Source: Myxococcales bacterium (GTDB lineage Bacteria; Myxococcota_A; UBA9042). From it: a stretch of 41,390 nucleotides of DNA. The DNA is taken from assembly GCA_037441385.1 (NCBI GenBank), contig JBBISH010000050.1, forward strand, positions 1-41,390, given 5' to 3'. Positions within the stretch are counted from its first letter, which is position 1. Each line of letters opens with the position of its first letter. Below, in pieces: positions 5,579-37,367 of this stretch. Below the pieces are notes generated by a model. That model ran no database searches and had not been told where the DNA came from. It was given only the letters and a program-made list of their open reading frames with translations. The translations under genes were made by a program, and so were the position numbers.

Positions 5579-5701
5579 CTCCTCGACGGCCAAGCCCGAG
5601 CGGTTCTTATTCGCTACTATCACCGGCGACTCTGCGGCCACCAAGGCCATAGCCTGCCTGACGCTGGCCAACGCCATGGACGCCCCAGGCTTTGCCCCTA
5701 A

Positions 5702-5833
5702 TACGAACCCCGTCTGATTCACGCCTGTACGGCTTCTCTGACCCGGTATGCAACCGGCGAGAATCAGGCGGGGACCCCGGTTCGAGCCCGAAGAATTGCC
5801 CGAGTTTTCGATCCGATTCGGACGGAACTGGTA
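5702..5833. mobile_element. 132-bp MITE-like repeat, family A, copy 2
   Basis: Same length as copy 1, opposite orientation, flanked by TAA on both sides (5699-5701, 5834-5836). Internal hairpin CCCCGTCTGATTC...GAATCAGGCGGGG. Confidence 0.85.
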
Positions 5834-6016
5834 TAACCTGTGCGATCCCACTGGTTTGGCCGCGACGCTGCAGGGCCAGGCGGACGCTGTCGTGCAGCGA
5901 GTGGTGCAGTTGGGGCTGTAGCATGGACGGACTGAGAATGCTGGAATTGCTGGGAGTTGCCATCCGGCCGACTTAGGCTATGTGGCAAGTAGCAATACCT
6001 GACACCAACGCCACCT

Positions 6017-6243: not shown

Positions 6244-8724
6244 CTAGGGCGCGAACTCGACCGCCCCGATCTCGCATCCACTGCCCACCGGTCGGGCTTT
6301 GCCACACAGGTCCACCGCGCCAGCCGCTGCGCACACTCCCGTATCTGCACCGTCGAGCAGCGGCGAACCGGAGGCGGGCACGAACGCGAACAGGCCGTTG
6401 CACCAAGCCAGATCGCCGGCCCCGAGTGGTCCCTTCAGGGTCGCGTTGCACGAGCCGTCCTCCACCAGGTTGCTGACGGTGCCGAGCAAGGCCGAGGCAG
6501 CGCAGTCTCCGCCGCCGCTCGCGCTGCCCCCGACCACCGAGTTGCGCAGGTCGAGCGAACCGGTCGCCAGAATGCCGCTGACGTTCGGCGAGATGTTGCC
6601 GTAGAACGTGCTGTGGACGATGGTGACCTTGCCGGGTGCAGCGAGGCCGCCGCCGTTGGCGCTGGCGCTGTTGCTGGTGAATGCGGTGCTGGTGATGGCT
6701 GCCTTGCCCTGGACGTACATGCCCCCGCCGGTCGCCGCGGCGTTTCCTACGAACGCTGAGCGCGCGACTGTCGCGACACAACTCACCGAACAAACGATGC
6801 CAGCGCCGGACCCTGCGGTTGCGTTATTCGCAAACAGGCTGCGGGTGACTTCAAGGCTGGCGTCGGCGAAGACCGCGCCGCCCGCGTTGTCGGCGAAGGC
6901 ACAGTCGCTGAGCTTCGCCCCGGCCGCGGCATACACGCCGGCTCCCACGGTAGCTTGACAATTGCGTACTTGCACGCCCTGCATCGTCAAGGTGCCGGAT
7001 TCTTGCCAGACCCCGCCGCCTTGGGCGCCACCACTGCCGGCTTGCACGATCACGTTGGTCAGCGACAAGTTGGCCTGCGCGTGGAAAATCCGGGATTTGC
7101 CACCGCCGTCGATGGTGACGGCTGACCCTGGCGCGACAATGGCGACCGGGGCCGTGATGGTGGGCAGGGCCGAGGCCAGCGTGATGGTGCCCTCGACGTC
7201 GAGCCCGATACCGCCGCCCCCCTTGGCTAGGGCGGCGCCGATGGCTTCGCGGAGCGAACAGTGCTTGGCGTCGCAGGTGCCGTCGTCGCTGTCGTCCGGG
7301 GCGGTCACGGCGAAATCGCAAACCTTGCCCCCGGCCTTGCAGGTGCCGTCCACGCACAGGTCGCCCACCGTGCATGCGTTGCCGTCGTCGCAGCCGATGA
7401 CCGTCGGCGCGTGCACGCAGCCTGCGTTCTTGCCGCAGCTATCGGCGGTACAGGCGTTGCCGTCGTCGCAGTTGGGCTTGCTGGCACACGGGTCGGTGCA
7501 ATTGGGCCAAGTGCCTTGGCCGGGCGCACATGCACTGCAGTTCGCGCCCGCAAAGCCCGCGTCGCAGTCGCAGCCACCGGTCGCGGTTTGGCAAATGCCC
7601 TTGCCGCTGCACGCGTTGGCCTTGCCGGCGCAAAGGTCGGGCTGGCAGTTCGGGTAGCCGGCGAAGCCCACGTCGCACTGGTTGCAGCCGGCGCCGGTGT
7701 AGCCCACTTTGCAGGTGCACGCGCCGGTGGTGGCGTTGCAGGTGCCGTTGCCGGCGCAGGGATCGGGGTCGCAGGGATCCTTTTCGCAGCCGCCGCTGAC
7801 GCAGGTCTCGCCGGCCGCACAGGTGCCGCACTGGCCGCCGCAGCCGTCTTCGCCGCACAGTTTGCCGTCGCAGCTCGGCACGCAGCCGCAGTTGTTGACG
7901 AAATCGGCGCAGCAGGTGCCCGCCGCGGTGCAGGTGTTGCTGCAGCCGCAGCCGCTTGGCGCCTTGCCGCCGCAGTGGCCCAGGCACGAGCTTACTTCTG
8001 CGATTTCCGCGCACTGGCCAAATGTGCAGGTTTCGCCCTCGTTGCATGCGCCGCACGAACCGCCGCAACCATCCGGACCGCAACCCTTGCCCGTGCACTT
8101 GGGCGTGCAGGTGGCGACGCACTGGCCGTCCTGGCAGAACGGTGCGCCGGGGCTCAGGCATTGCCCGCAGGCGCTGCCGCAGCCATCCGGGCCGCAGGTC
8201 TTGCCTGAGCAGGCCGGCACACACTCGGCGCAGGTGCCGTCCGCCCCGCACTTGCCGCTGCCACAGTGGGCAACGGGCAGGGCGGCGTTTGCGCAGTCCG
8301 GGTCAAGGATGCCACACGCGCAGTCACACAATTCGCCATCGCCGAAGGCGCTAGGTGCGCACACCCAGCCGGCCGGGGCTCCGGCGGGCACGCATGCGCC
8401 TTCTGGCGAGCATTTCTGGCCTTTGGGGCAGCCGGCCCCGCAGCCGACGCCCACCGAGTCGCCGGCCGCAGCATCGGTCGGGCCGGTCCCGTCCAGGCCG
8501 CCATTGGCGTCGAATGCCGTGCCTCCATCGACCAGCACGCACACGCCCTTTTCCGCCACGGTGCCGGCCCCGCATTGCAGAGCTGAAGCGGTGGCGACGC
8601 ACTTGCCGTCTTTGGCCACGGTGCCCGCGCCACAGGTGGGGCCGCTTTCACTGCACGCCATCAAGAGGACTACGATCGCCAGCCAACCGCGCCGGGTCAT
8701 TTCAGCTCGCATGGGCCCTCTCAT
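6244..8724 (-). CDS. Cys-rich lipoprotein with EGF-like repeats, CSLREA domain and right-handed beta-helix (polymorphic membrane protein-like) C-terminus
   Basis: Lipobox (VLLMAC), 3 CGxDGCG repeats, somatomedin-B-like module, EGF/laminin-EGF repeats (CxCxxGYxGxxC), DDGTCDAKHCSLREAI, FxxNxAxxGGG repeats and C-terminal SPLLDG...CEIGAVE. Start overlaps the upstream stop (ATGA). Confidence 0.9.
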   Translation of the reverse strand: MRGPMRAEMTRRGWLAIVVLLMACSESGPTCGAGTVAKDGKCVATASALQCGAGTVAEKGVCVLVDGGTAFDANGGLDGTGPTDAAAGDSVGVGCGAGCPKGQKCSPEGACVPAGAPAGWVCAPSAFGDGELCDCACGILDPDCANAALPVAHCGSGKCGADGTCAECVPACSGKTCGPDGCGSACGQCLSPGAPFCQDGQCVATCTPKCTGKGCGPDGCGGSCGACNEGETCTFGQCAEIAEVSSCLGHCGGKAPSGCGCSNTCTAAGTCCADFVNNCGCVPSCDGKLCGEDGCGGQCGTCAAGETCVSGGCEKDPCDPDPCAGNGTCNATTGACTCKVGYTGAGCNQCDVGFAGYPNCQPDLCAGKANACSGKGICQTATGGCDCDAGFAGANCSACAPGQGTWPNCTDPCASKPNCDDGNACTADSCGKNAGCVHAPTVIGCDDGNACTVGDLCVDGTCKAGGKVCDFAVTAPDDSDDGTCDAKHCSLREAIGAALAKGGGGIGLDVEGTITLASALPTITAPVAIVAPGSAVTIDGGGKSRIFHAQANLSLTNVIVQAGSGGAQGGGVWQESGTLTMQGVQVRNCQATVGAGVYAAAGAKLSDCAFADNAGGAVFADASLEVTRSLFANNATAGSGAGIVCSVSCVATVARSAFVGNAAATGGGMYVQGKAAITSTAFTSNSASANGGGLAAPGKVTIVHSTFYGNISPNVSGILATGSLDLRNSVVGGSASGGGDCAASALLGTVSNLVEDGSCNATLKGPLGAGDLAWCNGLFAFVPASGSPLLDGADTGVCAAAGAVDLCGKARPVGSGCEIGAVEFAP

Positions 8725-10874
8725 TTCGGCACGCAGACAGCGACGGTGGGGTCATCGGCGGGGTCGCTGGTGCCGGCGCCGTGTAGCGCTGCCTTGCCAC
8801 AGGTCCAGCCGCTGGGACAGTCGGCGTCGCCGCCGGGACAGTACGAGGTGCATTGGCCGCCGGGCAGGCACTGCTGGCCGGTCGGGCAGACACCGCACTT
8901 GGCCCCGATGGCCACTTTGGGCACCTGCGCGCACACAAAGCGCGGGCCCAAGTTCGCGGCGTCCACCAACGCGATGCAGGTTTCGTTGGTGCCTTTGCAG
9001 TCGCTTTGGGCCTTGCACGGCGTGGTCGAGCCGGCAATGAGCGTGCAGACGGGCGCAAAGCCGGCGACGGCCGCAATGCCGCTTGGCACAGGCATGCCGA
9101 CGCAAGTCTGGTTGACCGCGCATTCGGCGTCGGCGGCGCAGTATTGCCGACACTTGCCGTCCAAGCACAGGCCGGTGGCGCACTGGGCGCCGAACTGGCA
9201 GGGCGACCCTGGCACGGCACCAGGCCACGGCGCGCTGCAGGTGCCCAAGAACTTGCCGCCGCCCGCGAAGTAGGCGCCGGTGCACCACGCATTCTTGCAC
9301 GCGGCGTCGCTGGCGCAGAATTGGACATCGCACAGGCCCGCGGGGGTGCACGCGGTCGTCGCCTTCGGGCAGCCGAGCACGGTGGCTTTGGCCGTCTTGC
9401 AGTCCGGGTCCTGCGCGCCGCAGCCGCAATCGCAGCCCAGTTGGTCGCCGTACAGCGTCATGTCGCACTTCCAGGCCTTGGGGACGCATTTGCCAGTCCA
9501 GGCGCAGGTTTCGGTGCCGGTGCAGGTGCCGCATACGCCGCCGCATCCGTCGTCGCCGCAGGTCTTGCTGGTGCACTGGGGCTTGCAGGTGGCCGTGCAC
9601 TTGCCGTCGCTGCCGCAGTACGGCGACGCGCCCGCACAGGTGCCGCAGGACCCGCCGCAGCCGTCGGAGCCGCAGGTTTTGCCGGCGCAGTTGGGGGTGC
9701 AGGTGCACTTGGCGCCGAAGTCGGCGCAGCAGTTGCCCAATTGGGCGCATTTTTCGGTGCAGGAACAGCCGCTCTCTGCCTTGCTGCCGCAGTGGCCTTG
9801 GCACGAGTAGGGGCTGGGCCCGCTGGAAATGCACTGACCGCTGCCGCACACCTGATCGGCGGGGCAGGTGCCGCACGCGCCGCCGCAGCCGTCGCTGCCA
9901 CAGGTCGCCGTCTTGCAGGCCAATGGCTGGGCGCCGCATTTGTCCACGCAGGCGCCCCCGTCGCACGCCTTGCCGTCGGCGCACAGCCCGCACAGGCCGC
10001 CGCAGCCGTCAGCGCCGCAGGTCTTTCCGGTGCAGTCGGGAACGCAGGCCTGGCAAGCGCCGGCCGCGCACTTGTCGCCGGCGTTGCATCCGTACAGCGG
10101 CAGGCTGGCGTACTGACAGTCCGGATCGGGCACGCCGCAGTCACAATCGCAGGCATCCAGCGCGGCGTAGGCGTTTTTGGGGCAGGTCCAACCGGCGGGC
10201 ACCTTGCTCGTGCACTGGCCTTGGGCGTCACAGACCTCTAGGTCCGCGCAACCAGAGAGCGGCAGGCCCTTGTCCGCGCAGTCCGGGTCCGGTACACCGC
10301 AGCCGCAGTCGCAACTGTCGCCGGCGGCATACCATGCGGGTTTGCACGTCCAGCCTGTGGGAACGCAGTGGCCTTCGGTGCAGGTGGTGCCACTGGCGCA
10401 GGTGCCGCACTCGCCGCCGCAGCCGTCGTCGCCGCAGGTCAGTCCGAGGCAGGCTGGAACGCACGTGGCGCCGCACTTGCCGACGAGCGTGTCGCAGAAC
10501 GGCTTGGCCGGGTCCTTGCATGTGCCACAGGTGCCGCCGCAGCCGTCGTCGCCGCAGTCCTTGCCGACGCACACGGGGATGCAGGCTGGGGGCGAGGCAT
10601 CGGCGGCGGCGTCGACCGCGGTGTCGGCAGCTGCGTCCGACGTATCCGCGGCGTCGGCGGCGGTGTCAGCGCTGGCATCGCCGGTCGCGTCTTGGGCAGG
10701 GGCTAGGCATGCGCCATCGGCCTGGACCGTGCCGGGGCCGCAGGTCACGGCGTCGGCGGACGGCACGCACTTGCCGGCCTTTTCGACCGTGCCGGCCCCG
10801 CACGACAGGGGGGCTCCGCCGCAAGCGGGGCACCAAGAGGCTACGATGGCCAGGAAGGCAAGGCGCTGGATCAT
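8721..10874 (-). CDS. Cys-rich secreted protein/lipoprotein, paralogous to the N-terminal half of 6244-8724
   Basis: Signal peptide ending in PAC, shared CGAGTVxKxGKCV repeat, 6 CGxDGCGG repeats, 3 WxC...CDCxCGxxDPDC modules and a somatomedin-B-like module. ATGA overlaps at both ends. Confidence 0.9.
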   Translation of the reverse strand: MIQRLAFLAIVASWCPACGGAPLSCGAGTVEKAGKCVPSADAVTCGPGTVQADGACLAPAQDATGDASADTAADAADTSDAAADTAVDAAADASPPACIPVCVGKDCGDDGCGGTCGTCKDPAKPFCDTLVGKCGATCVPACLGLTCGDDGCGGECGTCASGTTCTEGHCVPTGWTCKPAWYAAGDSCDCGCGVPDPDCADKGLPLSGCADLEVCDAQGQCTSKVPAGWTCPKNAYAALDACDCDCGVPDPDCQYASLPLYGCNAGDKCAAGACQACVPDCTGKTCGADGCGGLCGLCADGKACDGGACVDKCGAQPLACKTATCGSDGCGGACGTCPADQVCGSGQCISSGPSPYSCQGHCGSKAESGCSCTEKCAQLGNCCADFGAKCTCTPNCAGKTCGSDGCGGSCGTCAGASPYCGSDGKCTATCKPQCTSKTCGDDGCGGVCGTCTGTETCAWTGKCVPKAWKCDMTLYGDQLGCDCGCGAQDPDCKTAKATVLGCPKATTACTPAGLCDVQFCASDAACKNAWCTGAYFAGGGKFLGTCSAPWPGAVPGSPCQFGAQCATGLCLDGKCRQYCAADAECAVNQTCVGMPVPSGIAAVAGFAPVCTLIAGSTTPCKAQSDCKGTNETCIALVDAANLGPRFVCAQVPKVAIGAKCGVCPTGQQCLPGGQCTSYCPGGDADCPSGWTCGKAALHGAGTSDPADDPTVAVCVPK

Positions 10875-12814
10875 TTGTCGCCGCCTTTGTGGCCGGCCGC
10901 GCTGCCAGAACCGACCAGACGGAACGGTGGCGCCACGCGCCCCGGCTCCAAGTAGTTCTTGAGTGACTCGCGCACCTTGGCCGATGGCTCCTGGTCCAGG
11001 GCCTGTTTGAGCACGTCGTCCAGGGCCGGGGCGTCCAGCGCCCAGGCAGCGATGGTGTTCGCCGCGCCCATCCGCACGAATTCATTGCGGTCGGTCAGCA
11101 GCGCCTTCTGCACCAGCGGCAGCAAAAGGGCCGGGCCGAGAAAGCGCGCGGCTTGCAACAGGTTGTCGCGCACATGGATGGAATCGTCCGTTTTCATCGC
11201 CTTTTGCATGGCCGGCAGCACCGCGACCGGGTCCTGGAAGCGCAGCGCCAGCGCCGCGACCACCCGCACCCGTTCGTGTGGCGACTGGAGGGCCTGCAGT
11301 AGCGGGTCCAGAGCCTCCGGCGCTCCGGTGTTGCCCAACGCCGCCACCCAGTTCGCAAGGTCCTGAATTGCTGGTGGCTGGCCGTGAGCCGGGGGCGCCA
11401 GCAACTCCTTGGTGTGCTCGGCCATCTCTGCCACGCCGGTCGATTTGGCTGGACCGTCCTGGTGCGCCAGCGCGGCGCCGAGCGTCATGGCGGCCATACC
11501 AGCAAAGGCCAGGTCTCCGGTGGCAAAGGCCATTTTGCGCAGCGAATCGGTGAACGCCGTGTCGGGACTGGGCACGAACACCGCGCCTTGCAGCGCGCGC
11601 TCGCGCAGCGGGTCTGGGAGGTCGCGGTCTGCCGCCAGTCCGACCAGCGCCTGGCGGGCCGCGGACGTATCTGCGCGCACTAGGGCCTCGATCAGCGTGC
11701 GCTCCACGGCCTCTTGCGCCACGCCGCCACGCAGCTGCTGCACGATTTGCGGCACGAGCGCAGGCTCCTGGGCCAGCTTGTCCGCCAAGTCATTGGCAAC
11801 CTTGGCGCGGTCGGCAACATTCTTGGCGGTGCCCGCCCGGGCAGCGGCGGCCAACAACTCGTCATAGCTTGCATCGATGCGGCGCGCCGAACTGCCCGCG
11901 GCCGCCGACGCGTCGAACGCCAGGAACCGCTTTGGATCCAGGCCACGCGCGAAGGTCGCGCTGGTCGTACCCTGGCGCTGCAGCGCCACCGTGGTCTCGT
12001 GGCGAATGCGGTCGGCCTTGCCGGGCACCCCCAGATCCATTTCGCCTTTTTGGGTTACCTGCACCGACTGCAATTGACCGTCGTGCCAGCGAAACGTCGC
12101 CGTCGACGTCAGGCGATACCCCGGCTGTCGCGGCGCCCCCGGCCGGTCGTCGTCGGTCGTGGCCTGGAACGTCTTTTCCACGCTGCCGTCTTGCCGCCGG
12201 GTATAGCTCGCCTGGTAGGCGCCATTGACGTCGGTCTCTTGTGCCTGCCAGATCGTCGCCGCCGGGTCGGCCGGGCGCGCGAACTGGATGGCCCGGACAA
12301 TGGTCGCCAACAGCCCGCGAGCCCCAAGGCGAACGCCAGGCTGGAAGCGCACTTGCTGGACCCGCCCGTCGGCCGCTTGCTCGGTCAGCCAGGTCGTCTG
12401 GACGTCCAGACCTGCCGTGGCAGAGAAGTCGGTCAGGCTGCGGCCGGCCTCGTCGAGGTCCAGCTGCGCCTGGGTGATCCGCGCGGCCGCTATGCCGTGG
12501 GCGTCGGCGGCGGTTGCCTCCAGCGTCGCTTTGAGCGCCACGGTGCCGACCTTGCGGGCCTGTCCGTCCGGCACGTCCAGCGTCAGCCCATACTGCAGCT
12601 CGTAGCGGGCCGCCTCGGCGCCGGCCACGACCATGGCGGATGCGGGCACAGGTGCAGGCGCGGCCTGGGCCTTTGGCTGGGCAGTGGGCGGCGCAGGTCG
12701 CACCACCAGCGTGTGCGGCGGAGCGGGCTGAACCGGCCACAACGTCACGGCCGCCACCACCGCCAGCAAAGTGAGCGCCACCACGGCCAGGAACCATCGG
12801 ATGCGGGTCGTCAT
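10871..12814 (-). CDS. Vitellogenin/MTP N-terminal-like (large lipid transfer protein-like) protein with HEAT-like alpha-solenoid
   Basis: N-terminal hydrophobic anchor, Pro/Ala linker, beta-rich domain with GRVQQVRF...RGLLATIVRAIQF...ETDVNGAYQASY, then helical repeats with LIEALVRADT, AAMTLG, AALGNTG, RVRVVAALALR. RBS AGGGGG precedes the ATG. The gene call is solid; the family call is by motif order. Confidence 0.7.
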   Translation of the reverse strand: MTTRIRWFLAVVALTLLAVVAAVTLWPVQPAPPHTLVVRPAPPTAQPKAQAAPAPVPASAMVVAGAEAARYELQYGLTLDVPDGQARKVGTVALKATLEATAADAHGIAAARITQAQLDLDEAGRSLTDFSATAGLDVQTTWLTEQAADGRVQQVRFQPGVRLGARGLLATIVRAIQFARPADPAATIWQAQETDVNGAYQASYTRRQDGSVEKTFQATTDDDRPGAPRQPGYRLTSTATFRWHDGQLQSVQVTQKGEMDLGVPGKADRIRHETTVALQRQGTTSATFARGLDPKRFLAFDASAAAGSSARRIDASYDELLAAAARAGTAKNVADRAKVANDLADKLAQEPALVPQIVQQLRGGVAQEAVERTLIEALVRADTSAARQALVGLAADRDLPDPLRERALQGAVFVPSPDTAFTDSLRKMAFATGDLAFAGMAAMTLGAALAHQDGPAKSTGVAEMAEHTKELLAPPAHGQPPAIQDLANWVAALGNTGAPEALDPLLQALQSPHERVRVVAALALRFQDPVAVLPAMQKAMKTDDSIHVRDNLLQAARFLGPALLLPLVQKALLTDRNEFVRMGAANTIAAWALDAPALDDVLKQALDQEPSAKVRESLKNYLEPGRVAPPFRLVGSGSAAGHKGGDK

Positions 12815-12826
12815 GGTCGTCGCCCC

Positions 12827-15800: not shown

Positions 15801-18800
15801 GGCCCATTGGCGTCCGCGCCGGTCCACGCGCTGCCATCCGCCTTGCGCGCCCGCGGCCGATCGAGATCCGCCGCGCCGCCGTTGTGGTGGAAGTTCGCGT
15901 AGTCGCGCAGCCGCAGTTCGCCAGAGGCATTGTAGCGCTGGCCGTCCAGCCACACTTGCGGGCCCAAGCCGCGCCACGCGTCCAGTTCGGTGTCGCCGAG
16001 CGCCCGGCCGAACAGCGCCGCCCAGCCAAGGTCCACGCCGCCGCCCGCCTCGAAGGTGCGCGCCTGCTGCATGTTGGCTCCAACAAACAGGGGCGTGGCG
16101 GTGGCCAGCGAGTGGACGCCGACGCGGTAACCGTCCACATACACTGCCTGACTGGCGCCGGATTGGACCAGGGCCACGAATGCCCATTCGTCTGCGGCCA
16201 GCCCGTGCTCGCACGCCGGCGCGGCCGGTACCTGCGTCGCGCCGGTGAATGCGGTCACCGCGCGATTTTGGCAGCCACTGCCGATGGCGATGGTTGCCTG
16301 AGGCGACTTGTCCAGCAGCAGGCGCATCAGCGGCTTGCCGGCCGTCAGCGTCCCCGTACGCACCCAACCGGCGAACGTGAAGTCGGTCAGGGGCGCCAAA
16401 TCGGCGTCTGCGACGCTCGGCGCGTAGGTGGCGCCCGCGCTCAGCCCCAGCGCCTGCCAGCTTGCCTGCAGCGGCAGCGTGTCGTTGGGCCCGGTCAGAT
16501 TGGCGGCCACTACCGGCTGCGTCACCGCCTTGCCCGCGGTCATCCCGATGTTGCCGGCCACGACGCGCGCCGGGTCCATCACCGGCCACACCCGCAGCAG
16601 GCCCTCTTGACGCTTGGCGATGAGCGCACCGATCTCGTCGTCGGACAGCGCGCGGTCATACACGAAGACATCATCCAGGTGGGCCACCGCCGCCAACCGG
16701 CCACCGGCCACGTGACTGTGGTTGGGGGGCACACCAAGCAGCGGGCCGGCGCCCAGCACGACTTCGTTGAACACCGGCTGGTAGGCCAGCGTGTCCGTCG
16801 CTTGGGCAATACCGTCCAGGTACAGCCGGCGGATACCGGGACCGCGGTCCGGCGGGTACGGGTGGTAGGTAACGGCGACGTGGTGCCACACATCGCGGTC
16901 AATCGGTGCTTGCGAACGCAACGTGCTGTTGTCTGGGCCCACCAGTGGCGGCGTACCCATTTGCAGGCGCAGGCGGCCACCGGCATCGCTTGGTTCCACG
17001 ACCACTGCGCCCGCGTCGCCGGGTGCGTCGTAGTCACACCCCGCGCGCACCACCAGCCTGGACGACACACCGGTCTGGTCTTTGCACGGGTCCCCAGTGA
17101 TGGGCAGCAGGTCGAGTTCGCACTCCGACTTGTTCAGGCATGCGGCTTCCACGAGCTTCTGGGCGTCAACCGCCTGGCAACGGTAGTCCGGCAGCACCTG
17201 GGCGTACTTGCCGCAGGTGCCATTGGGGGTCGGACTGCCGGCGGTCGAGCCGTAATAGGCGCGAATCCAACGTACGGTGGATTTGGGCTGCGCACTCGGC
17301 CAGGGGTTCGGGCAGGTCAGCTTGACCTTGGAATCGCCGGTGCGCGACCAGTTGCAGGTGACCAGATCGGTCGCCGCCGCCTTGAGCGACAGCAGCGGAT
17401 TGGCGACATCCGGCGCGTCCTTGGGCACCTTGAACCACGCGCCGACCGACCAGCCACCGCGGTTCGGTCCGCCCTCGAAGGGGCGACGCGGCAGGACCTG
17501 GTCCAGCAGAACGCGTTGGGTCGCGAACGACGGGACGCCCCCCTTGTCGAAGCCAAAGCCGCCGCCCTGGCTGCCGGCTACTTCGGCCACGACGCCGTCG
17601 GGTTTGAGTAGGCCCGTCACCAAGGTAGAGGTCGGAGGACCTGCGCTCACATTCGGCCGTGGGGTGTAGGCGACCAACCCCTCTAGGGGGTAGGGCTGCC
17701 CTGACGGCAGCACTTGATCGACGCCGCTGACCAGGTTCACCAGCGTCTGGAACGCGGTGCCCGGCGCAATTTGGCCCTGTGCGTACGGCGCCGGCCACGG
17801 CGGCAAGAAGCTGCCGGGCACGGCACAGCTTCCGCAATCGGCGACGCACGTGCTGCACGTCTCGCCCAGCGCCGCTTCGCAGGTCTTGTTGCCGCAGGCG
17901 TTCGGCTTGGGCTTGGCAGACTGGCACCACGCCGCGTAGTTGCTGCAGCAATCGCCGCGCTTTTCGCAGCCCGTGTCGCATTGGCACGGCCAGAACGAGT
18001 TGGGCGCTTCGCCGCACAGCCCACTGCAGCTGCCCTGGCTGCCGCCGAGCATTGGCTTTTCGCACTGGCCCGTGCCGTAGTTGCAGACGGTGCCGGTGCT
18101 GGGCTTGCAGCCGCCGCACAGTTGGCCGCACTTGTTGGTTTCGCAGGGCTTCTTGCCGGTGCAGGAGCCGCAGTCCTTGCAGATTTGCTCCGGGAGCGGC
18201 GCCAACACGGTCTTGCCGAGCTTGCCGCAGTTGATCTCGTAGGTGACGCTGTCGCGGCCACAGTCAGGGGTAGTGCCGCCACAAGTCGCGACCTGCAAGC
18301 CCATGCCGCCCTTGTAGTATTGCCGCATGGCGGGCGTGCTGGCGATGCAGCAACCTTCGAGCGGCGTGGACCATTTGACCAGTTGCGGATCCGGCAGGCA
18401 CTTGGCGTCGGCCCCGCAGATGGCGCCGCCCACGCAGGTGCCGCACTTGCCGCCGCAGCCGTCGTCGCCGCACTGTTTGCCGGCGCACTGGGGCACGCAC
18501 TTGGGCGTGGTGCCGAACGCGGCCTTGGGGTACTTGCCGGTCGGGTCCGCACCGCCCCCGGTGCCGCACGAGTAGGCGCCGATGCCGGCGTTCCAGCCGC
18601 AGAAGGCCTCGCTGGTGCAGTCCTGGGTGACGATTTTGCCGTTGGTGCAGTATTGCAGGGTCTCGCCGCTGCAGGCGCCCTGCCAGGGCGTGTTCTCGCA
18701 CGTGGGCTTGGGCGGGATGAGTTCGCACTTGGTGCCCACACACTGTTGGCCAGTGGGGCAGGCTTGGCAGTTGCCGCCGCAGCCGTCGTCGCCGCAGCCC

Positions 18801-21800
18801 TTGAAGCTTGGGCAGTACGGGGTGCAGCACTGGCCTTGGGGGTCGCACTTGTCCCCGGCGCTGCAGGCGCCACACGAGCCGCCGCAGCCGTCGCTACCGC
18901 ACTTCTTGTTCTTGCAGTCGGGGATGCACGGGCAGTCGATGGGCGTGCCACCGGGGTCCTTGCCCGTGCCGGTGCAAGAGTACTCGCCGGTGCCGGCGTT
19001 CCAGCCGCAGCCGCTCGTGCACACCTGCGCCGCGACGTTGGCCTTGGATTTCGGCCCGGCCTTCTGGCAGATGCGCAGGGTGTCGCCCTGGCAGCAACCG
19101 CGCAGCGGGACGCCGCCGCACCCTTCGGTGGAGATGCACAGCCCCGAGGCGTCGTCGCAGATGCCGCCGGCCGGGCAGGCGCACTGACCGCCGCAGCCGT
19201 CGTCGCCGCAGGTCTTGCCGTTGCACTGGGGTGTGCAGGTCTGTGCAGCGCCCTTGCAGTACTTCGGCTTGCCCGCAGGGCCGGCCGCGCCGCTGCTGCC
19301 GCAGCCGTAGCCGCCGTAGGACTGCCAGCCGCAGAAGCCCTTGCTGGCCTTGCAGTCCAACGTTTGCACCACCATCGATTTGCCGTCGGCGGACTCGCCG
19401 CACCATTTGAGGGTCTGGCCGTCGCAGCACGAGGTCTGGATGTCGCCGCACTTGTTTTCGGGCGGTGGCTTGCACAGGTCTACCGGGTTCTTGTATTGCT
19501 TTTGGCAAATCATGCCTTGCGGGCACTTGCACTCGTTGCCGCAGTTGTCGGTGGCTTCCGAGTACCAGGTCGAGGTGTGCTTGCAGAAGAAGTTGGTCTT
19601 GGCGACACCCTTGTCGGTCCAGCTGAAGCTGCAGGTCTTGGGGTCGGGTACGCACGGCGGGCCGCACTTGTGGTCCTTGCAGACTTGGCCGGGGGCACAG
19701 GTGCCGCAAGTGCTGCCGCAGCCGTCTTCGCCGCACTCGGCCCCGACGCAGTTGGGTTGGCACAGGCCGGCCGGGCACTCGAGCGGCACGCCGACGCTGG
19801 CCGGGGCTTCGGTGGCCTTGTCGCTGCAGAAGTAGCTGTCGGTGGTCCATCCGCACGTCATCGGTGGCTTGAACTTGCCGCAATCGACCTTGTCCTGGCC
19901 GCCAAAGGCGCAGCGAATGGCGATGTTGCCTTGGCAGCAGTTGACCTCTGGAATGCCAGCGCAGGCGCCGGTTCCGCATTTGCCCGAGGCAAAATTGCAG
20001 GTCTCTGCGCCCGAGCAGGTGCCGCAACTGCCGCCGCACCCGTCGCTGCCACAAGTCTTGCCGGTGCAGTCCGGGACGCAGGTGGGCGTGCCGGGCGGCT
20101 GGCGCGGATACTTGCCGCTTGGGTCGACGAGGCCTGGCTTGTCGACGCAACCGTACTTGCCGGCGGCCGCGTCCCAGCCGCACCACAGCTCTTGCTTGCC
20201 GCAGTCCTTCTTGGTCGGGCCGGTCGCCGTACACGTCGTCAGGACTTCGCCTTTGCAGGTGCCGGCGGCGGGCGTCTTGGGGCACTTGTCAGAGACGCAC
20301 AGGCCGGCGGCGCACAGTTCGCCCACCTTGCAGGTGCCGCACGTGCCTTTGCAGCCGTCGCTGCCGCACTCCTTGTTGGTGCAGCTGCTCTCGCAGGCGT
20401 TCGGGTCCTTGCACTTGCCGTCGGCCGTACACACCCAGCCGGTCTGGCAGGTGCCGCACACCCCTCCACAGCCGTCGTTGCCGCAGGTCTTGCCGGTGCA
20501 CTGCGGCGTGCAGCAACCCGAGATCAGTGGGTTGCATTTCTGGCCGGCCGGGCAGGTGCCGCACAGGCCGCCGCAGCCGTCGGCGCCGCAGGTCTTGCCG
20601 TCGCACTTGGGGACGCATTGGCACAGGCCCTTGCTGTCGCAGGCTGTGCCGGTGCCGCAAGTGCCGCAGGAGCCGCCGCAGCTGTCGTCGCCGCACTGCT
20701 TGCCGCTGCACTGCGGTTTGCAGACGTCTTTGCAGGTGCCGTGGGCGGTGCAGAACTGATCGGCCCCGCACTTGCCACAGGTGCCGCCGCAACTGTCGGG
20801 GCCGCAGGCCTTGCCTGAGCATTGGGGCGCGCAGACGCACTGGTCGCCTTGGCACATGGTGAGCGGGCCGCAGGAGCCGCACGACCCGCCGCAGCCGTCG
20901 GCGCCGCACGCCTTGCCCGCGCAGGCCGGGACGCATTGGCAGGTGCCGGCGTCGGTACAGACCTCGTTGGACTTGCAGCCGCCGCACACGCCGCCGCAGC
21001 CATCGTCGCCGCAGGTTTTGCCCGCGCAGTCGGGGGTGCAGGCGCCGCCGCAGGCCTTGGGATAGCTCAGGCCGGCCGCGGGCTTGCCCTTGGTGTTGCA
21101 GCCGAAGGTGCCGGTGCTGGCGTTCCAGCCGCAGGTGCCGCTGGTGCACGTTTTTTCGACCAAGATGCCGGTGCCGCCGCAGACCTTGAGCGCCGCACCG
21201 CTGCAGCACCCGGTGGGCGAGACCGCGCCGCACGCCTCGCTGCAGGTGACGACAAAGCCGAAGCTGTCGCCGACCGCAGCCGAAATGGCGGTGATGCCCT
21301 TCCAGTAGCCGACCGTGGACGGCGGGAAGTTGCTGGGGTTGCCCCAGGCGACGGCAAGCCCGTCGGTCTTGATCACCAGGCTGAAGCGCTCGCCTGCCGC
21401 CACCGCGACCACGTCTTTGAGGCCTGCCGGCACGGCGATCTGGCCAAGGGTAGAGGCGCCCCAAGCCGCGACGGTGCCGTCGGGTTTGCGGGCCACCACG
21501 TGGTCCAAACCGACGGCCACCTGAGTGGCCACAAGCCCGGCCGGCACGGCCTTCATCTTTGCATTGCCGCCAAAGACCTGCACGCTGCCGTCCTTGGCGA
21601 TGACCGCGGTGTGCTTGCCGCCCGCGGCGATGGCGGCGATGTTCGACAGGCCGCTGACCTGGCTGACGTTGCCGCCGTCGTCCCGGCCCCAGGCGACGAC
21701 CTTGCCGGACGAGGTGAGCGCGACCGAATGGAACTCGCCCGCCGCCACGGCGACCACGTTGGCCAGACCAGCGGGCACGGTGGCCTGCTTCCAGGTGTTC

Positions 21801-24382
21801 GCGCCCCAGGCCTCGACCATGCCATCTTTGCGGGCGACCAGCGCGTGGTGGTGGCCGGCGGCGAGCACGGCGACGTTCTTGCGCGTCTTGGCGCCTTCGA
21901 CGAGCAGGTCGTCCAGACCCCAGCCGACCACGGTGCCGTCGTACTTGAGCGCAAGGCCGCTCCAAATGGACGCGCCGACGGCCTTGACGGACGTGAGCCC
22001 TTCGGGAATCGCAAACTTGTTCGGATTGGTGGTGCCCACGCTCTTGACCGTGCCGCAGGTGCTGGAGTCTACGGAGCATTCACCCGAGCCGTTGCAGGTC
22101 TCGCCGGCCTTGCAGGTGCCGCAGGAGCCGCCGCAGCCGTTGTCGCCGCACGTCTTGCCGGTGCAGCTGGGGACGCAGACGAACTCGCATTGCCCTTTGG
22201 CGGTACAGGTTTTGCCGCCCGTACACAGGCCGCATAGACCGCCGCAGCCGTCTGCGCCGCATGCCTTGCCGGTGCAATCCGGCGTACACGGCTCGGCGCA
22301 TTTGCCCTGGACGGTGCAGGTCTTGCCCGGTCCGCAGGCGCCGCAGGTGCCGCCGCAGCCGTCGGGGCCGCAGACCTTGCCCAGGCAGTCGGTCTTGCAG
22401 GTGCTGGCGCACTTGCCGTTGCCGGAGCACACCGATCCCGCGTCGCAGGTGCCGCAGGTGCCGCCGCAACCGTCCGCGCCGCACACCTTGCCGTTGCAGT
22501 CTGGCTTGCAGGCGGTGGAGCAGTTGCTGCACTGCGCGCATTCCTGGTCGCACAGGGCGTCCCACGAGACGTTGCAGCAGTACGGGTCGAACGCGCAGAT
22601 GCAGTTGCCGCACGGGCCGTTGGCGCTGCCGCACTTGGGGTCGGGTGCGCACGAGCCTGCGGTGCACAGCTTGCCGCCGGGACACACGCCGCACTGGCCG
22701 CCGCAGCCGTCGGGACCGCAGGTCTTGCCGGTGCAGTTGGGCGTGCAGACGCCGCCACAAAGAACCGCGCATGCCGGGTTGGCGCACTCGTTCTGGCACA
22801 CCTTGGTCCAGTTGGTGTTGCAGGCGGGGACGGTGGCCTTGATGCAGTTCTCGCATGCCGCATTGGTGTTGTTGCACTTGTTGGACCAGCAGGTGCTGTT
22901 GGGCAGGCAGACTTCGTCGCTTTGGCAGGTGCCGCAGGTGCCGCCGCAGCCGTCGTCGCCGCAGGTCTTGCCGGTGCAGTTGGGCTTGCAGGTCAACGCT
23001 GGGCAGGTATTGGCGAATTGACTGCCAAACGGCGCTCCGGTCCCGGCGGTGTCGCAGCCGAAGATGCCGGTGCTCGCGTTCCAGCCACAGGTGCCGGCCT
23101 TGCAGGCGGTCCCGGTGACGACGCCGCCGTCGCAAGCCTTGAGCGTGTCGCCCGCGCAGCAGCCGGTCGGACCGACAGACGCGCAGTTGCTGGCACAAGT
23201 GACAAACAGGGCCCCACTTTGTTCGTCCCAGGCGCTTGCCAGGCCCGTGACGCCGGTCAGCGCCGCGATCGCAGGAATGAGCGGGTGGCTGCCGTACTGG
23301 GCCTCTGCGGTCACGGTGCCGTCGGCGAGCAAGGCCATTGCGACCGAAGCGTTGCCGCCAACTGCCACGGCCGTGGTGACGTTGGACAACAAGGGCTGGA
23401 CCTTGCCGTTGCCCCAGGCCACGACCGTGCCGTTGTCCTGCAAGGCCAACCACCTTCCGGCACCGAAGCCCAACGCCTTGGCCTTCAATCCGGGAGGCGG
23501 ATCGTTCGCGTCCATGGGAGTGCTGCCAAACACGACCACGCTGCCGTCGGTCTTGATGCCAGCAAGGTTGCCGGCGAGCCCGTAGATGGCCGCAAAACCG
23601 GTCTGGCCGTTGATGGCCGTGACTTGGCCCCAGGAATTGTCGCCCCAGGCCACGAGGCTGCCGTCGTCCTTGAGTGCCAACAAGGTGCCGAAACCGTTGG
23701 CAAGCGCCTTGACGTTGGCGAGCCCCGCGGGCACCGCGCATAGGTTGTAGGTCGGCTTGCCCGGCCCCCCGCCGAAGGTGCATTGGCCATAGACGCCGAC
23801 GGTGCCATCCGCCTTGAGGACCAGCACCACGGCTTCCCCCGCCGCGAAGGCCTTGATTCCCGTCAGCGCAGCCGTTGGTTTGAACATGGTGTCGAGGGCG
23901 ACGCTGGAGGGCCAGCCGACCAAGGTGCCGTCGTATCTGAGGGCCATCGCGTGGCTTGCAAAAACTTGAATTTCCTTGACGTTGTTCAGACCCGCGGGCA
24001 CTTCCAGTACCGGTTGGAAGTCCGACGTCCCGACGGTTGTGATCTTGCCGCACTCAAAGGCGACGGCCGGCGCAATCCAACCCAGCAGCGCTGCGCACAG
24101 CACGCCGGACGCCAGCGCGAGCCGGCGCCACAAGATCCTATGGAATCCGCTTGGACCGACCTGAAAAGTCGAGCAGTTCTTCGAGGCCAAAGCGGAGTCC
24201 CCGCCTGATTGGCGCCGGTTGCAGCGCGGGTCCAAGAGGCGGTGCAGGCGTGAGTCAGCTGGACTTGGTAATACCTGTGGATTTTGCACGGCTTGCCTGT
24301 CCCGGCCCGCGGGCGCGGGCACCGCGAGAAGTAGAGCGGTGGCCCCTCTGGCGCCGGTCCAGAGGCGTAACCTCAGCGGCAT
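12827..24382 (-). CDS. Giant (~3,800 aa) secreted Cys-rich multidomain protein: 2 RCC1-like propellers, Cys repeats, somatomedin-B-like, 3 LamG, nested SUEL lectin, C-terminal beta-sheet domain
   Basis: Uninterrupted 11.5-kb ORF. Signal-like segment LWRRLALASGVLCAALLGWIAPAVA, so the true start may be nearer 24190. RCC1/BLIP-II repeats (IAAGxxHxxALxxDGTVxAWG) at ~23200-24050 and ~21240-22060. About 19 CGxDGCGG repeats. LamG motifs (WHHVAVTY, LYLDG, DDVFVYDRALS) at ~15220-17700. Confidence 0.93.
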   Translation of the reverse strand: MPLRLRLWTGARGATALLLAVPAPAGRDRQAVQNPQVLPSPADSRLHRLLDPRCNRRQSGGDSALASKNCSTFQVGPSGFHRILWRRLALASGVLCAALLGWIAPAVAFECGKITTVGTSDFQPVLEVPAGLNNVKEIQVFASHAMALRYDGTLVGWPSSVALDTMFKPTAALTGIKAFAAGEAVVLVLKADGTVGVYGQCTFGGGPGKPTYNLCAVPAGLANVKALANGFGTLLALKDDGSLVAWGDNSWGQVTAINGQTGFAAIYGLAGNLAGIKTDGSVVVFGSTPMDANDPPPGLKAKALGFGAGRWLALQDNGTVVAWGNGKVQPLLSNVTTAVAVGGNASVAMALLADGTVTAEAQYGSHPLIPAIAALTGVTGLASAWDEQSGALFVTCASNCASVGPTGCCAGDTLKACDGGVVTGTACKAGTCGWNASTGIFGCDTAGTGAPFGSQFANTCPALTCKPNCTGKTCGDDGCGGTCGTCQSDEVCLPNSTCWSNKCNNTNAACENCIKATVPACNTNWTKVCQNECANPACAVLCGGVCTPNCTGKTCGPDGCGGQCGVCPGGKLCTAGSCAPDPKCGSANGPCGNCICAFDPYCCNVSWDALCDQECAQCSNCSTACKPDCNGKVCGADGCGGTCGTCDAGSVCSGNGKCASTCKTDCLGKVCGPDGCGGTCGACGPGKTCTVQGKCAEPCTPDCTGKACGADGCGGLCGLCTGGKTCTAKGQCEFVCVPSCTGKTCGDNGCGGSCGTCKAGETCNGSGECSVDSSTCGTVKSVGTTNPNKFAIPEGLTSVKAVGASIWSGLALKYDGTVVGWGLDDLLVEGAKTRKNVAVLAAGHHHALVARKDGMVEAWGANTWKQATVPAGLANVVAVAAGEFHSVALTSSGKVVAWGRDDGGNVSQVSGLSNIAAIAAGGKHTAVIAKDGSVQVFGGNAKMKAVPAGLVATQVAVGLDHVVARKPDGTVAAWGASTLGQIAVPAGLKDVVAVAAGERFSLVIKTDGLAVAWGNPSNFPPSTVGYWKGITAISAAVGDSFGFVVTCSEACGAVSPTGCCSGAALKVCGGTGILVEKTCTSGTCGWNASTGTFGCNTKGKPAAGLSYPKACGGACTPDCAGKTCGDDGCGGVCGGCKSNEVCTDAGTCQCVPACAGKACGADGCGGSCGSCGPLTMCQGDQCVCAPQCSGKACGPDSCGGTCGKCGADQFCTAHGTCKDVCKPQCSGKQCGDDSCGGSCGTCGTGTACDSKGLCQCVPKCDGKTCGADGCGGLCGTCPAGQKCNPLISGCCTPQCTGKTCGNDGCGGVCGTCQTGWVCTADGKCKDPNACESSCTNKECGSDGCKGTCGTCKVGELCAAGLCVSDKCPKTPAAGTCKGEVLTTCTATGPTKKDCGKQELWCGWDAAAGKYGCVDKPGLVDPSGKYPRQPPGTPTCVPDCTGKTCGSDGCGGSCGTCSGAETCNFASGKCGTGACAGIPEVNCCQGNIAIRCAFGGQDKVDCGKFKPPMTCGWTTDSYFCSDKATEAPASVGVPLECPAGLCQPNCVGAECGEDGCGSTCGTCAPGQVCKDHKCGPPCVPDPKTCSFSWTDKGVAKTNFFCKHTSTWYSEATDNCGNECKCPQGMICQKQYKNPVDLCKPPPENKCGDIQTSCCDGQTLKWCGESADGKSMVVQTLDCKASKGFCGWQSYGGYGCGSSGAAGPAGKPKYCKGAAQTCTPQCNGKTCGDDGCGGQCACPAGGICDDASGLCISTEGCGGVPLRGCCQGDTLRICQKAGPKSKANVAAQVCTSGCGWNAGTGEYSCTGTGKDPGGTPIDCPCIPDCKNKKCGSDGCGGSCGACSAGDKCDPQGQCCTPYCPSFKGCGDDGCGGNCQACPTGQQCVGTKCELIPPKPTCENTPWQGACSGETLQYCTNGKIVTQDCTSEAFCGWNAGIGAYSCGTGGGADPTGKYPKAAFGTTPKCVPQCAGKQCGDDGCGGKCGTCVGGAICGADAKCLPDPQLVKWSTPLEGCCIASTPAMRQYYKGGMGLQVATCGGTTPDCGRDSVTYEINCGKLGKTVLAPLPEQICKDCGSCTGKKPCETNKCGQLCGGCKPSTGTVCNYGTGQCEKPMLGGSQGSCSGLCGEAPNSFWPCQCDTGCEKRGDCCSNYAAWCQSAKPKPNACGNKTCEAALGETCSTCVADCGSCAVPGSFLPPWPAPYAQGQIAPGTAFQTLVNLVSGVDQVLPSGQPYPLEGLVAYTPRPNVSAGPPTSTLVTGLLKPDGVVAEVAGSQGGGFGFDKGGVPSFATQRVLLDQVLPRRPFEGGPNRGGWSVGAWFKVPKDAPDVANPLLSLKAAATDLVTCNWSRTGDSKVKLTCPNPWPSAQPKSTVRWIRAYYGSTAGSPTPNGTCGKYAQVLPDYRCQAVDAQKLVEAACLNKSECELDLLPITGDPCKDQTGVSSRLVVRAGCDYDAPGDAGAVVVEPSDAGGRLRLQMGTPPLVGPDNSTLRSQAPIDRDVWHHVAVTYHPYPPDRGPGIRRLYLDGIAQATDTLAYQPVFNEVVLGAGPLLGVPPNHSHVAGGRLAAVAHLDDVFVYDRALSDDEIGALIAKRQEGLLRVWPVMDPARVVAGNIGMTAGKAVTQPVVAANLTGPNDTLPLQASWQALGLSAGATYAPSVADADLAPLTDFTFAGWVRTGTLTAGKPLMRLLLDKSPQATIAIGSGCQNRAVTAFTGATQVPAAPACEHGLAADEWAFVALVQSGASQAVYVDGYRVGVHSLATATPLFVGANMQQARTFEAGGGVDLGWAALFGRALGDTELDAWRGLGPQVWLDGQRYNASGELRLRDYANFHHNGGAADLDRPRARKADGSAWTGADANGPLTLDNGNLAQVSVPARGRFRALDPSGVRAFSWSGRVQLTASTPANLPLVRLDDGTASTSFSASLACSRTGSAIACRVDFAGRTTEGKTVNWSSETRGATLSSSSQSFELAVALAYDGTAPRVAFGTSNLAAAGKLQMPPAKVKVAATQTSAASAGQTASNATFRMSAPAGKSVSFSSVRLYSRALADLELTRLCDQDCATVGCGAAGRVCSPGKGGATPVCAACDGKHVEAAAELGATCVQRLPFFAPCAVDAQCETDFCSNQSGRCAAKVITPECEKVCGVLGRTCVVAAAAFPDTKHTTCSKDCKAYFAPPEIEPDTGACIWTPTAQAGEVCMDDLQCKVTGKCVKTTEPIYQVDVNWSPACSGGKCPTWNGLNKQPLTCDKKFDMSYIPTNKGPEASTGATCPPVATASSNDGQRGRCAGGAAPDCAAIHRQTKLLKGAGVGGTDVAVCGDCDPTQYSGKPMWVKRWRLMSPQLCKSMVHTGVANRLLGQPGIEYMGDNLDVGALAMLVLNKPLNYIVKPKDVADMIAKGMGPKLIEMVFDQDSYLEWIKTWGFFGFQACFTPQYKAGGKSDPMTSPFFDPELNYQVCAPNQYPDGTPCPPEGVDIKLADQFCQSGFCARDTHVCEEGYGRLDDTSAGDKKDQQNSEEGDISPVRLVQRNVTTAQVKKVDDPKAKLTDKQKRSYSIAVKNVHDLEFFGATQEIFGIQSTMFGTMDEEKTSFLGQVLLMGMALPGKLEPGVGCPGASWKDGEYTPPPGGTCGPGGTDGFNPLDLVKKKLKIPAKEKCYPSPGGCKPNLYQGSNIQKYTEKGPLCYTAYNFIGPVPVKMEAAVTIDACLALGVAVDKDTQEPAYEVTPKIGVNLTVTGTAGASEGLAKLYVAVEAAITIVELAFPVKWGLTIAAAVDETVTPSSTVQNLFIVKFTRTVDMVLTILKLDLTAKAVAGVGPAKISKKLKIFSFDGWELTWNLEESDLFTKKIDFQHFTVNQ

Positions 24383-26480: not shown

Positions 26481-26774
26481 AGCGCGTATCGGTCTAGACT
26501 TTCTCCGCGCATGCAAGCCGTCGCGCAGCGCCTCTTCCTCGCCCGATTCAACCTGGGGATAATCCTGGACGCCGCGCGCCGGTTCAGGCTGCGGAACTGG
26601 ATCCCGGCTGCGTTGGTGGCGCCCGGCGGCCCTCGGCCGCTTGGGCGGATGTTCATCGGCGGCGTCCTGCGGCGACATGATGGTGGGCGGTGTCGGCGCG
26701 GCATGGCGCACGGGCGACGGCCGCCATGGTGCCTGCCTGGCCGGCGGCATCCGACTTCTTTGCTGGGGCGAGCG

Positions 26775-27371
26775 ATGATCAAACCATTGAATCGAATAAC
26801 CTTTCTTGCCGTGCAGGTCGCGCTCCTCGTCACCGCTAGCTGCGCGCCCCTCTATGGCATGATGGGCTATCCGCCCAATCCGATGCGGGCGACGCCGCCG
26901 GTCGGTGTTCCAGCTTCCGCCATGCCGGCGGGTGCAATCGTGCCGGCCGCCAGCCTGACCGACGACGCGGGCCGAACATTCTTGCTCGGCGACCGGTTGG
27001 GGAGTGGGCCGTGGGTCTTGGTCTTCTACCGCGGCCACTGGTGTCCGTTTTGCCGCGCCCAGCTCAGCGATCTGCAGGCCCAGCTGAGCGAATTCGCCAA
27101 GGCCGGCGTTGGGATCGCCGCCATTTCGGGCGAGGACCGCGAAGACAGCGCGCCGCTTCGGCAAAGACTTGGGCTGACCTTGGAGCTGTGGACGGATCGC
27201 GACCTTGCGCTGACGCGGGCGATGGGCATCGCCGATGCCGAGAACGGCGTGCCGTGGCCGGCCGTGTACGTGGTCGACAAGGGCGGAACCGTGCGCTGGC
27301 GCTGGGTTGCCGAGACATACAAGAAGCGGCCGACGGCGCGCGAGGTCCTGGCCCAGGTTCCCCACGGTTAG
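26775..27371 (+). CDS. Peroxiredoxin-like (AhpC/TSA/redoxin) lipoprotein
   Basis: Signal peptide with LLVTASC lipobox, VLVFYRGHWCPFC redox motif, PAVYVVDKGGTVRW. Start taken at ATG 26775. Confidence 0.88.
   Translation: MIKPLNRITFLAVQVALLVTASCAPLYGMMGYPPNPMRATPPVGVPASAMPAGAIVPAASLTDDAGRTFLLGDRLGSGPWVLVFYRGHWCPFCRAQLSDLQAQLSEFAKAGVGIAAISGEDREDSAPLRQRLGLTLELWTDRDLALTRAMGIADAENGVPWPAVYVVDKGGTVRWRWVAETYKKRPTAREVLAQVPHG

Positions 27372-33309: not shown

Positions 33310-37367
<4,058 letters not shown>

Follow-up and report, generated by a model that had tools for sequence, protein, structure and literature searches.

The window analysed here is the whole of a 41,390-nt stretch of DNA (positions 1 to 41,390, forward strand, of contig JBBISH010000050.1 from the Myxococcales bacterium assembly GCA_037441385.1), and the system under study is a run of four minus-strand genes within it. 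In the open reading frame (ORF) list these genes encode P0001 (3851 aa), a giant Cys-rich protein, followed by P0002 (647 aa), P0003 (717 aa) and P0004 (826 aa). A short spacer separates the TAG stop codon of the giant from the ATG of P0002, while the P0002/P0003 and P0003/P0004 junctions both read ...AAATGA..., a 4-nt stop/start overlap (ATGA). The initial annotation had described four minus-strand genes joined by a 12-bp gap and two ATGA overlaps, and these coordinates and junctions were confirmed exactly. GC content at third codon positions (GC3) is 0.82–0.87 for all four ORFs in a window of ~63–71% GC (about 68%), which fits real genes. Long plus-strand ORFs opposite the giant gene (e.g., 17714–20818) were rejected as shadow ORFs of a high-GC gene. 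Cysteines number 320 in P0001, 0 in P0002, 110 in P0003 and 87 in P0004. Terminator-like sites in the window were rarer than in shuffled sequence (6 versus a shuffle mean of 14.6), the tRNA scan of the window found none and the Rfam scan of the window found no family. AT skew is strongly negative (down to -0.21) over parts of the giant gene (window positions 12000–15000 and 17000–21000), presumably an effect of amino-acid and codon bias in that gene.

There is little doubt that P0002 shares remote homology with the N-terminal module found in the large lipid transfer proteins (LLTPs), which are generally viewed in the field as an animal superfamily. An AlphaFold (AF2) model was built from a five-sequence alignment (mean predicted local distance difference test (pLDDT) score of 78). 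It consists of a 20-residue hydrophobic helix, a low-confidence Pro/Ala-rich linker to residue ~65, a barrel of 11 strands with helices at 122–127, 134–138 and 163–175 (the last of 13 residues), and an alpha-solenoid, with the chain ending ~25 residues past the last helix. When this model was compared with the PDB using Foldseek, ranks 1–11 were all MTP, lipovitellin, vitellogenin or apoB, and HEAT, alphaRep and importin-type proteins appeared only from rank 12 on. The top matches were MTP (6i7s, E 5.9e-16) and lipovitellin (1lsh, E 4e-15, TMq 0.50), so the likeness to these two proteins that the initial annotation had anticipated was borne out by the predicted structure. Further matches included honey bee vitellogenin, apoB-100 and the isolated apoB barrel (9bd8_A, E 4.5e-8), and the LLTP alignments span ~620 columns, i.e., both domains.

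Sequence profiles point the same way. A profile made from 72 P0002 relatives matches the large subunit of human MTP (E 6.6e-7), and does so collinearly (profile positions 135–547 versus MTP 105–524). The Pfam family Vitellogenin_N (PF01347) is matched at E<=0.01 by 39 of the 72 relatives (best 3.1e-11), and it scores above the curated cut-off in 5 of 17 sampled relatives, at profile positions ~300–590 in the helical part; some relatives already carry the PF01347 tag in databases. It is the combination of the Foldseek ranking, the MTP profile match and Vitellogenin_N in the relatives that makes the homology well supported. General searches are dominated by the HEAT-like portion of the solenoid. 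HEAT_2 is matched by P0002 (52.5 bits against a cut-off of 27.7, residues 489–555 plus a second stretch) and by all 72 relatives, phmmer against the PDB returned designed HEAT proteins only, and the NCBIfam scan gave only a weak match to NblB. A word-indexed search found four close relatives, the closest of which is named 'HEAT repeat protein' by one source.

An exhaustive profile search for the family gave 159 representatives below 1e-30. By eye, about 125 of the best 150 matches are single-stretch proteins of ~600–700 aa and 25 are multi-repeat HEAT proteins. None of 114 full-length members carries lipid-binding sheets in cis, the longest C-terminal extension being 160 aa. The claim that the 647-aa protein supplies only an LLTP-type barrel and solenoid is thus upheld by model, Foldseek, profile and family alike. 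Export signals had been assigned to all four proteins, and this holds with one caveat: the hydrophobic helix of P0002 has no evident cleavage site and could serve as a membrane anchor instead of being cut off as a signal. An N-terminal hydrophobic run is present in 68 of the 72 relatives.

The window contains one copy of a conserved Myxococcota-type cassette. We scanned one genome per species with the pattern of the five-sequence alignment, which yielded nine loci and covers the closer relatives. By record title, seven of these are from Myxococcales, Myxococcota or Deltaproteobacteria metagenome-assembled genomes (MAGs). Loci L002 and L003, from a single MAG, are titled 'uncultured Enterobacteriaceae'; their GC content is 64–67% and their cassettes are of the myxobacterial type, and the label looks wrong. 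In all seven loci with upstream sequence, the P0002 homolog is preceded by a giant ORF that stops 6–15 nt short of it (the distance is 12 nt in four loci), and the layout of TAG, ribosome-binding-site (RBS)-like spacer and ATG recurs. The two halves therefore co-occur in 7/7 testable loci, as the initial annotation had expected. These giants range from 1723 to >3328 aa, four being cut by the 10-kb flank. The last ~870–950 residues of all seven match P0001 residues 2900–3851 (E 4e-82 to 4e-178), while the upstream portions are variable and show repeat-level matches only, leaving the C-terminal module as the sole part common to all.

Downstream, a P0003-like gene directly follows the P0002 homolog in 8/9 loci, L006 having no room for one, and a P0004-like gene comes next in all six loci that reach far enough (partial in L001; longer in L002, L003 and L006). 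L006 (1604–13087) represents a minimal cassette, with a giant of 1723 aa ending in the C-terminal module, a P0002 homolog and a P0004-like gene. No conserved context was seen in the related loci beyond the four cassette genes. That independent genomes repeat this gene order, tight junctions included, goes beyond chance. The cassette core is the ~950-aa giant C-terminal module plus the ~650-aa LLTP-like protein, followed by one or two Cys-rich lipoproteins. Pairwise identities of the P0002 homologs and of the giant C-termini correlate (r 0.94), and both components fall into the same identity groups ({L002, L003, L006}, {L004, L005, L007}, the window, and L001). Two MAGs each have two diverged cassettes, which indicates that the cassette duplicates as a whole unit.

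Given an LLTP module without sheets, the C-terminal module of the giant was considered as a possible source of them. A model of residues 2900–3851, built from 8 sequences, has a mean pLDDT of 58.9 with no residue at >=90. It places, in order, a beta-sandwich, small Cys-rich units, a six-helix bundle and a strand region, the last comprising four strands of 9–15 residues, a low-confidence loop of ~100 residues, seven strands of 11–33 residues and a four-residue terminal helix. In the available part of PMC6717300, MTP's C-terminal domain is described as two sheets of 6 strands each, the C-sheet and the A-sheet, the strands of the latter being twice as long, together with a terminal helix; the predicted strand pattern of the giant appears to resemble it, at the level of pattern only. 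Foldseek with this model placed MTP at ranks 2 and 3 (E 5e-3 and 7e-3, probability 0.91 and 0.89, ~348 columns), lipovitellin at rank 8 and a second MTP entry at rank 24, with the tool's own warning that matches from low-confidence models can be meaningless. The initial annotation had claimed that this C-terminus supplies long amphipathic strands. Long strands are indeed predicted, and conservation-weighted hydrophobic alternation is significant in 3 of the 11 predicted strands; the C-terminus is a candidate for the missing sheets.

A functional link between P0002 and the giant's C-terminal module is highly likely, and physical pairing is the most likely reason for it: theirs is the tightest junction in the cassette, the module is the only invariant part of the giant, and the P0002 family never carries its own sheets. 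In the reading we prefer, the two products would bind each other: P0002 would grip the beta-rich end of the giant with its barrel and solenoid, in the way these domains hold the A and C sheets in MTP. The two chains would together make up an LLTP-like unit, in which a hydrophobic pocket lies at the base of the long adhesive arm. Such a unit would bind lipid, or pass it on, either at the cell envelope or at a surface with which contact is made. An LLTP-like pocket seems the most economical use of a barrel-plus-solenoid clamp. The whole chain, from homology through binding of the giant C-terminus to a two-chain unit with a lipid pocket, is drawn by analogy with animal LLTPs and is in our view possible, somewhat short of probable; lipid capture at prey surfaces is conjecture. 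Taken as a whole, the interpretation in the initial annotation is partly supported. More speculative, and unlikely as a complete account, is a Myxococcota-type two-chain LLTP with its pocket at the base of a lectin/RCC1 arm of micrometre scale, serving lipid uptake or delivery on contact with prey or kin. In that account its family would stand at the prokaryotic root of the vitellogenin/apoB/MTP superfamily or would go back to an ancient transfer, with a solenoid that still shows its PBS-lyase-type HEAT origin.

Several observations weigh against a two-chain lipid-binding unit. On the side of P0002, its own Vitellogenin_N match covers 43 residues and is sub-threshold (21.0 bits; the cut-off is 24). 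Having no Cys, it also lacks the barrel disulfide of MTP, lipovitellin and apoB (Cys174–Cys194 in MTP, with equivalents in the other two, according to the available part of PMC6717300). Across the 72 relatives the median Cys count is 1. On the side of the giant, the C-terminal model is weak, with 276 residues at pLDDT below 50, the MTP alignments reach a TM-score of only 0.07–0.08, and no Foldseek match has E<=1e-3. The MTP matches are interspersed with hairpin proteins that form pores and with a phage tail fibre, a mixture expected of loosely packed long hairpins, and 8/11 predicted strands are not significantly amphipathic. No sequence method ties the module to LLTP sheet domains: no member of the module alignment matches the Pfam LLTP sheet families at E<=1 (where Pfam gives only scattered single-member chance hits), the module profile finds nothing relevant among PDB sequences, and two ESM Atlas queries were uninformative. 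Searches for fused forms, all of them weak, were likewise negative. No longer proteins were found with P0002 residues 60–480 as the query, four long relatives of the giant module have neither HEAT nor Vitellogenin_N, and the module profile matched none of 153 other proteins, including the P0002 family. The gene order, sheets before barrel, is unlike that of LLTPs and argues against a simple split of an LLTP gene; if the two-chain model is right, it would be an assembly of two separately evolved chains. Finally, the correlated identities speak for co-inheritance and not for contact, since shared ancestry alone yields such a correlation. Adjacency and co-divergence are expected of any operon and are not a sign of contact.

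Three other explanations were weighed. P0002 could be a docking or anchoring adaptor without lipid function, which binds the giant module and either tethers the giant through its helix and ~40-aa linker or chaperones its assembly, with no pocket. Taken by itself this is somewhat unlikely, and it is nearly as plausible as an LLTP-like pocket because LLTP N-terminal modules bind proteins in animals and because P0002 has an anchor-like helix and linker. The available part of PMC6717300 describes the barrel and helices of MTP as binding apoB and PDI, i.e., as protein platforms, and, going by the title of PDB entry 9bd8, the apoB barrel binds the LDL-receptor propeller. The long hydrophobic helix and low-confidence linker of P0002, together with the hydrophobic run in nearly all of its relatives, would suit such a tether, the giant has no anchor of its own that domain scans recognise, and sequence comparison detects no LLTP sheet signal in it. 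However, a docking role leaves unexplained why an entire sheet-clamping barrel and solenoid is retained across the 114 representatives, and the matches of the giant's end to MTP and lipovitellin, marginal as they are, point in the opposite direction. It is also conceivable, though distinctly unlikely, that P0002 shares the operon without touching the giant and works with P0003 and P0004 or alone, e.g., in envelope lipid or lipoprotein handling or in the maturation of disulfide-rich cargo. The counts of P0003-like and P0004-like genes given above (8/9 and 6/6) make the lipoproteins about as faithfully linked to P0002 as the giant is. Against this, L006 does without a P0003-like gene yet keeps the giant module, the P0002 homolog and the P0004-like gene, the giant-to-P0002 junction is the tightest and most conserved, and the sole invariant portion of the giant is the one adjoining P0002.

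We consider it very unlikely that the giant's terminal beta-region is a membrane-inserting element, i.e., an outer-membrane anchor barrel or an array of pore-forming hairpins, for which P0002 would be the periplasmic or targeting factor. Long hairpins are predicted, some strands alternate between hydrophobic and polar residues, and the weak Foldseek matches include gasdermin, MAC/perforin, pleurotolysin, alpha-hemolysin, OmpC and TamAB (E 0.02–0.25). However, all of these pore and barrel matches are non-significant, mostly with probability <=0.15, and they come from a C-terminal model of low confidence. The strands of outer-membrane barrels are typically ~10–14 residues long, and the predicted strands (17–33 residues) are much longer. 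Outer-membrane beta-signals also typically end in an aromatic residue, whereas the conserved C-terminus of the giants reads ...T(A/V)NQ, with no terminal aromatic.

Apart from its C-terminal module, the giant is a mosaic of extracellular domains (Table 1). Its true start is probably TTG at 24133 (3768 aa), rather than ATG at 24382. The database copy (P0155) is 3768 aa long and begins MWRRLALAS...APAVA|FE, 83 codons downstream of ATG 24382, a promoter scan places a promoter-like -35/-10 pair at 24410–24381, overlapping that upstream ATG, and a classical signal peptide follows directly after the TTG. The lectin and RCC1 arms of the initial annotation were recovered by Pfam as two RCC1-like propellers and two Laminin_G_3 domains. 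The strict Cys-rich motif occurs 14 times in the whole giant. Somatomedin_B is normally a eukaryotic extracellular module; a similar Cys pattern recurs by eye in P0003 (~residues 358–392) and P0004 (~residues 247–281). A stretch resembling a SUEL (galactose/rhamnose-binding) lectin at residues 2367–2449 is sub-threshold (22.9 bits, cut-off 31.4) and lies within window positions 16751–17284, where the matched portion of Laminin_G_3 domain 1 comes directly after it. The two downstream genes had been described as encoding Cys-rich lipoprotein partners, and both products are indeed lipoprotein-like. By eye, P0004 has the lipobox LLMAC; P0003 has a non-canonical one (VASWC/PAC), with LLAGC-type boxes in its homologs; PTGC and ASAC also occur among homologs. 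P0004 further contains EGF_2, Dicty_CTDC and CSLREA domains, a POMP-repeat region and a choice-of-anchor Q end.

Table 1 Features of the four-gene cassette in the window; residues are those of the respective ORF product.
Feature	Position	Strand	Basis and remarks
P0001, giant secreted Cys-rich protein	12827..24382	-	Longest ORF, 3851 aa
P0002, very likely LLTP N-terminal module homolog, 647 aa, no Cys	10871..12814	-	Pfam, AlphaFold model, Foldseek, profile
P0003, lipoprotein-like, 717 aa, 15% Cys	8721..10874	-	ORF, Cys count, homologs
P0004, probable Cys-rich lipoprotein, 826 aa	6244..8724	-	ORF, domain scans
12-nt spacer with RBS-like G-run, GGGGGCGACGACC-type	12815..12826	-	Between P0001 TAG stop and P0002 ATG
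Probable Sec signal peptide of giant (MWRRLALASGVLCAALLGWIAPAVA, then FE)	24059..24133	-	Read from sequence; start agrees with P0155
RCC1-like beta-propeller 1 of giant, residues ~121-327	23402..24022	-	WD40_RLD E 1.2e-12, RCC1_2 E 5.7e-10
Cys-rich repeat block 1 of giant, units of CxxC-GK-CG-DGCGG-CG-C type	22043..23185	-	Motif count; no Pfam family
RCC1-like beta-propeller 2 of giant, residues ~787-982	21437..22024	-	RCC1_2 E 1.2e-35 (6 stretches), WD40_RLD E 2.8e-28
Cys-rich repeat block 2 of giant, about 1150 residues, Somatomedin_B at end	17798..21247	-	Motif count, Pfam
Somatomedin_B domain of giant, residues 2118-2155	17918..18031	-	Pfam E 5.8e-10
Two ConA-like lectin (Laminin_G_3) domains of giant, residues ~2469-2544 and ~2657-2778	16049..17284	-	Pfam
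Conserved C-terminal module of giant, residues 2900-3851	12830..15685	-	Homolog alignment; no Pfam family
Terminal beta-rich region of giant, residues 3519-3843, 4 medium and 7 long predicted strands	12854..13828	-	Model; candidate stand-in for LLTP C/A sheets
N-terminal hydrophobic helix of P0002, residues 3-24	12743..12808	-	AlphaFold model; signal peptide or membrane anchor
Beta-barrel domain of P0002, residues 67-285	11960..12616	-	AlphaFold model, Foldseek
Alpha-solenoid of P0002, residues 317-622, 18 helices	10949..11866	-	AlphaFold model; last third also HEAT_2

The remaining genes of the window fall outside the conserved cassette. On the minus strand just downstream of it, adjacent ORFs at 3779–4090 and 4103–5851 both match PQQ_2 (BamB-like propeller), the larger also having a MopE metal-binding motif, and the pair may be one gene broken by a stop, a frameshift or a sequencing error. 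A Cys-rich protein at 1565–2947 (minus) matches Dickkopf_N (E 3e-9) with hints of EB and DUF7107, another eukaryote-like extracellular module just downstream of the cassette. Divergent from the cassette, a plus-strand gene at 26511–27371 encodes an AhpC/TSA-Redoxin family protein with an N-terminal extension of ~140 aa, for which a thiol-disulfide role towards the nearby disulfides is conceivable; the gene is not conserved in the related loci, where the upstream flanks are filled by the giant gene. Further along, the minus strand encodes two tandem proteins with two Lcl_C domains each (30935–33108), and a 1123-aa protein with an adenylate/guanylate cyclase fragment, AAA_16 and TPR (33310–37496). 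The latter overlaps an upstream cyclase-fragment ORF by ~250 nt, and the two could belong to one longer gene whose start is misplaced or whose frame is interrupted. A large serine recombinase with Resolvase, Recombinase, zinc ribbon and HTH_17 domains is encoded near the window end (38287–40563, minus), possibly at the edge of a mobile element.

What is new here is a bacterial branch of the LLTP N-terminal module that is genomically locked to one module of giant secreted proteins rich in disulfides. The literature covered here, PMC6717300 included, treats LLTPs (vitellogenin, apoB, MTP, apolipophorin) as an animal superfamily. Our full-text searches, whose scope excluded subscription journals and supplements, brought up only work on animal LLTPs or on unrelated topics, with no title or abstract opening on a bacterial LLTP homolog. 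For evolutionary questions, a bacterial barrel-plus-solenoid family (about 114 full-length representatives at 50% identity) offers an outgroup for the origin of the animal lipoprotein carriers. As the bacterial proteins have no sheets and always stand behind the same giant module, the N-terminal LLTP module's own role and its clamped partner become testable in bacteria. Should the two chains really form a lipid pocket, this would give bacteria a surface device for handling lipid that is of a new kind; if not, the family still gains a function-relevant annotation beyond 'HEAT repeat protein'.

Among known systems, the large subunit of MTP (6i7s, 8eoj) is the closest. It shares with P0002 a barrel around a helix followed by a double-layer solenoid of ~17–18 helices, it is the best structural match and the only LLTP found by the family's sequence profile, and it is itself part of a two-chain assembly, with PDI (PMC6717300, available part). 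Unlike MTP, P0002 ends with its solenoid, lacking A and C sheets, contains no Cys, is exported or membrane-anchored in a bacterium, and is encoded next to a giant adhesin-like protein, and general domain scans revealed no PDI-type partner in the cassette. Lipovitellin and vitellogenin (1lsh, 9ens, 9enr; PF01347) give the highest TM-score among the LLTP matches (that to 1lsh), and the helical part of PF01347 is what more than half of the relatives match. In contrast to vitellogenin, P0002 is not a single-chain lipoprotein, and neither P0002 nor the giant showed a match to a Pfam LLTP sheet family or to any other C-terminal domain of vitellogenin. The N-terminal beta-alpha1 region of apoB-100 (9bd1, 9e9r, 9bd8) aligns with the P0002 barrel and solenoid over ~620–635 columns (E 2e-11 to 2e-7), but the profile signal for apoB is negligible (E 0.62) and its chain runs on into very long amphipathic belts. 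Finally, the PBS-lyase-type HEAT proteins (HEAT_2, alphaRep) resemble P0002 strongly over residues ~489–620, the only part recognised by a plain sequence search of the PDB, whereas the name 'HEAT repeat protein' takes no account of the parts that make up the LLTP architecture, namely the barrel at the N-terminus and the solenoid's first two thirds.

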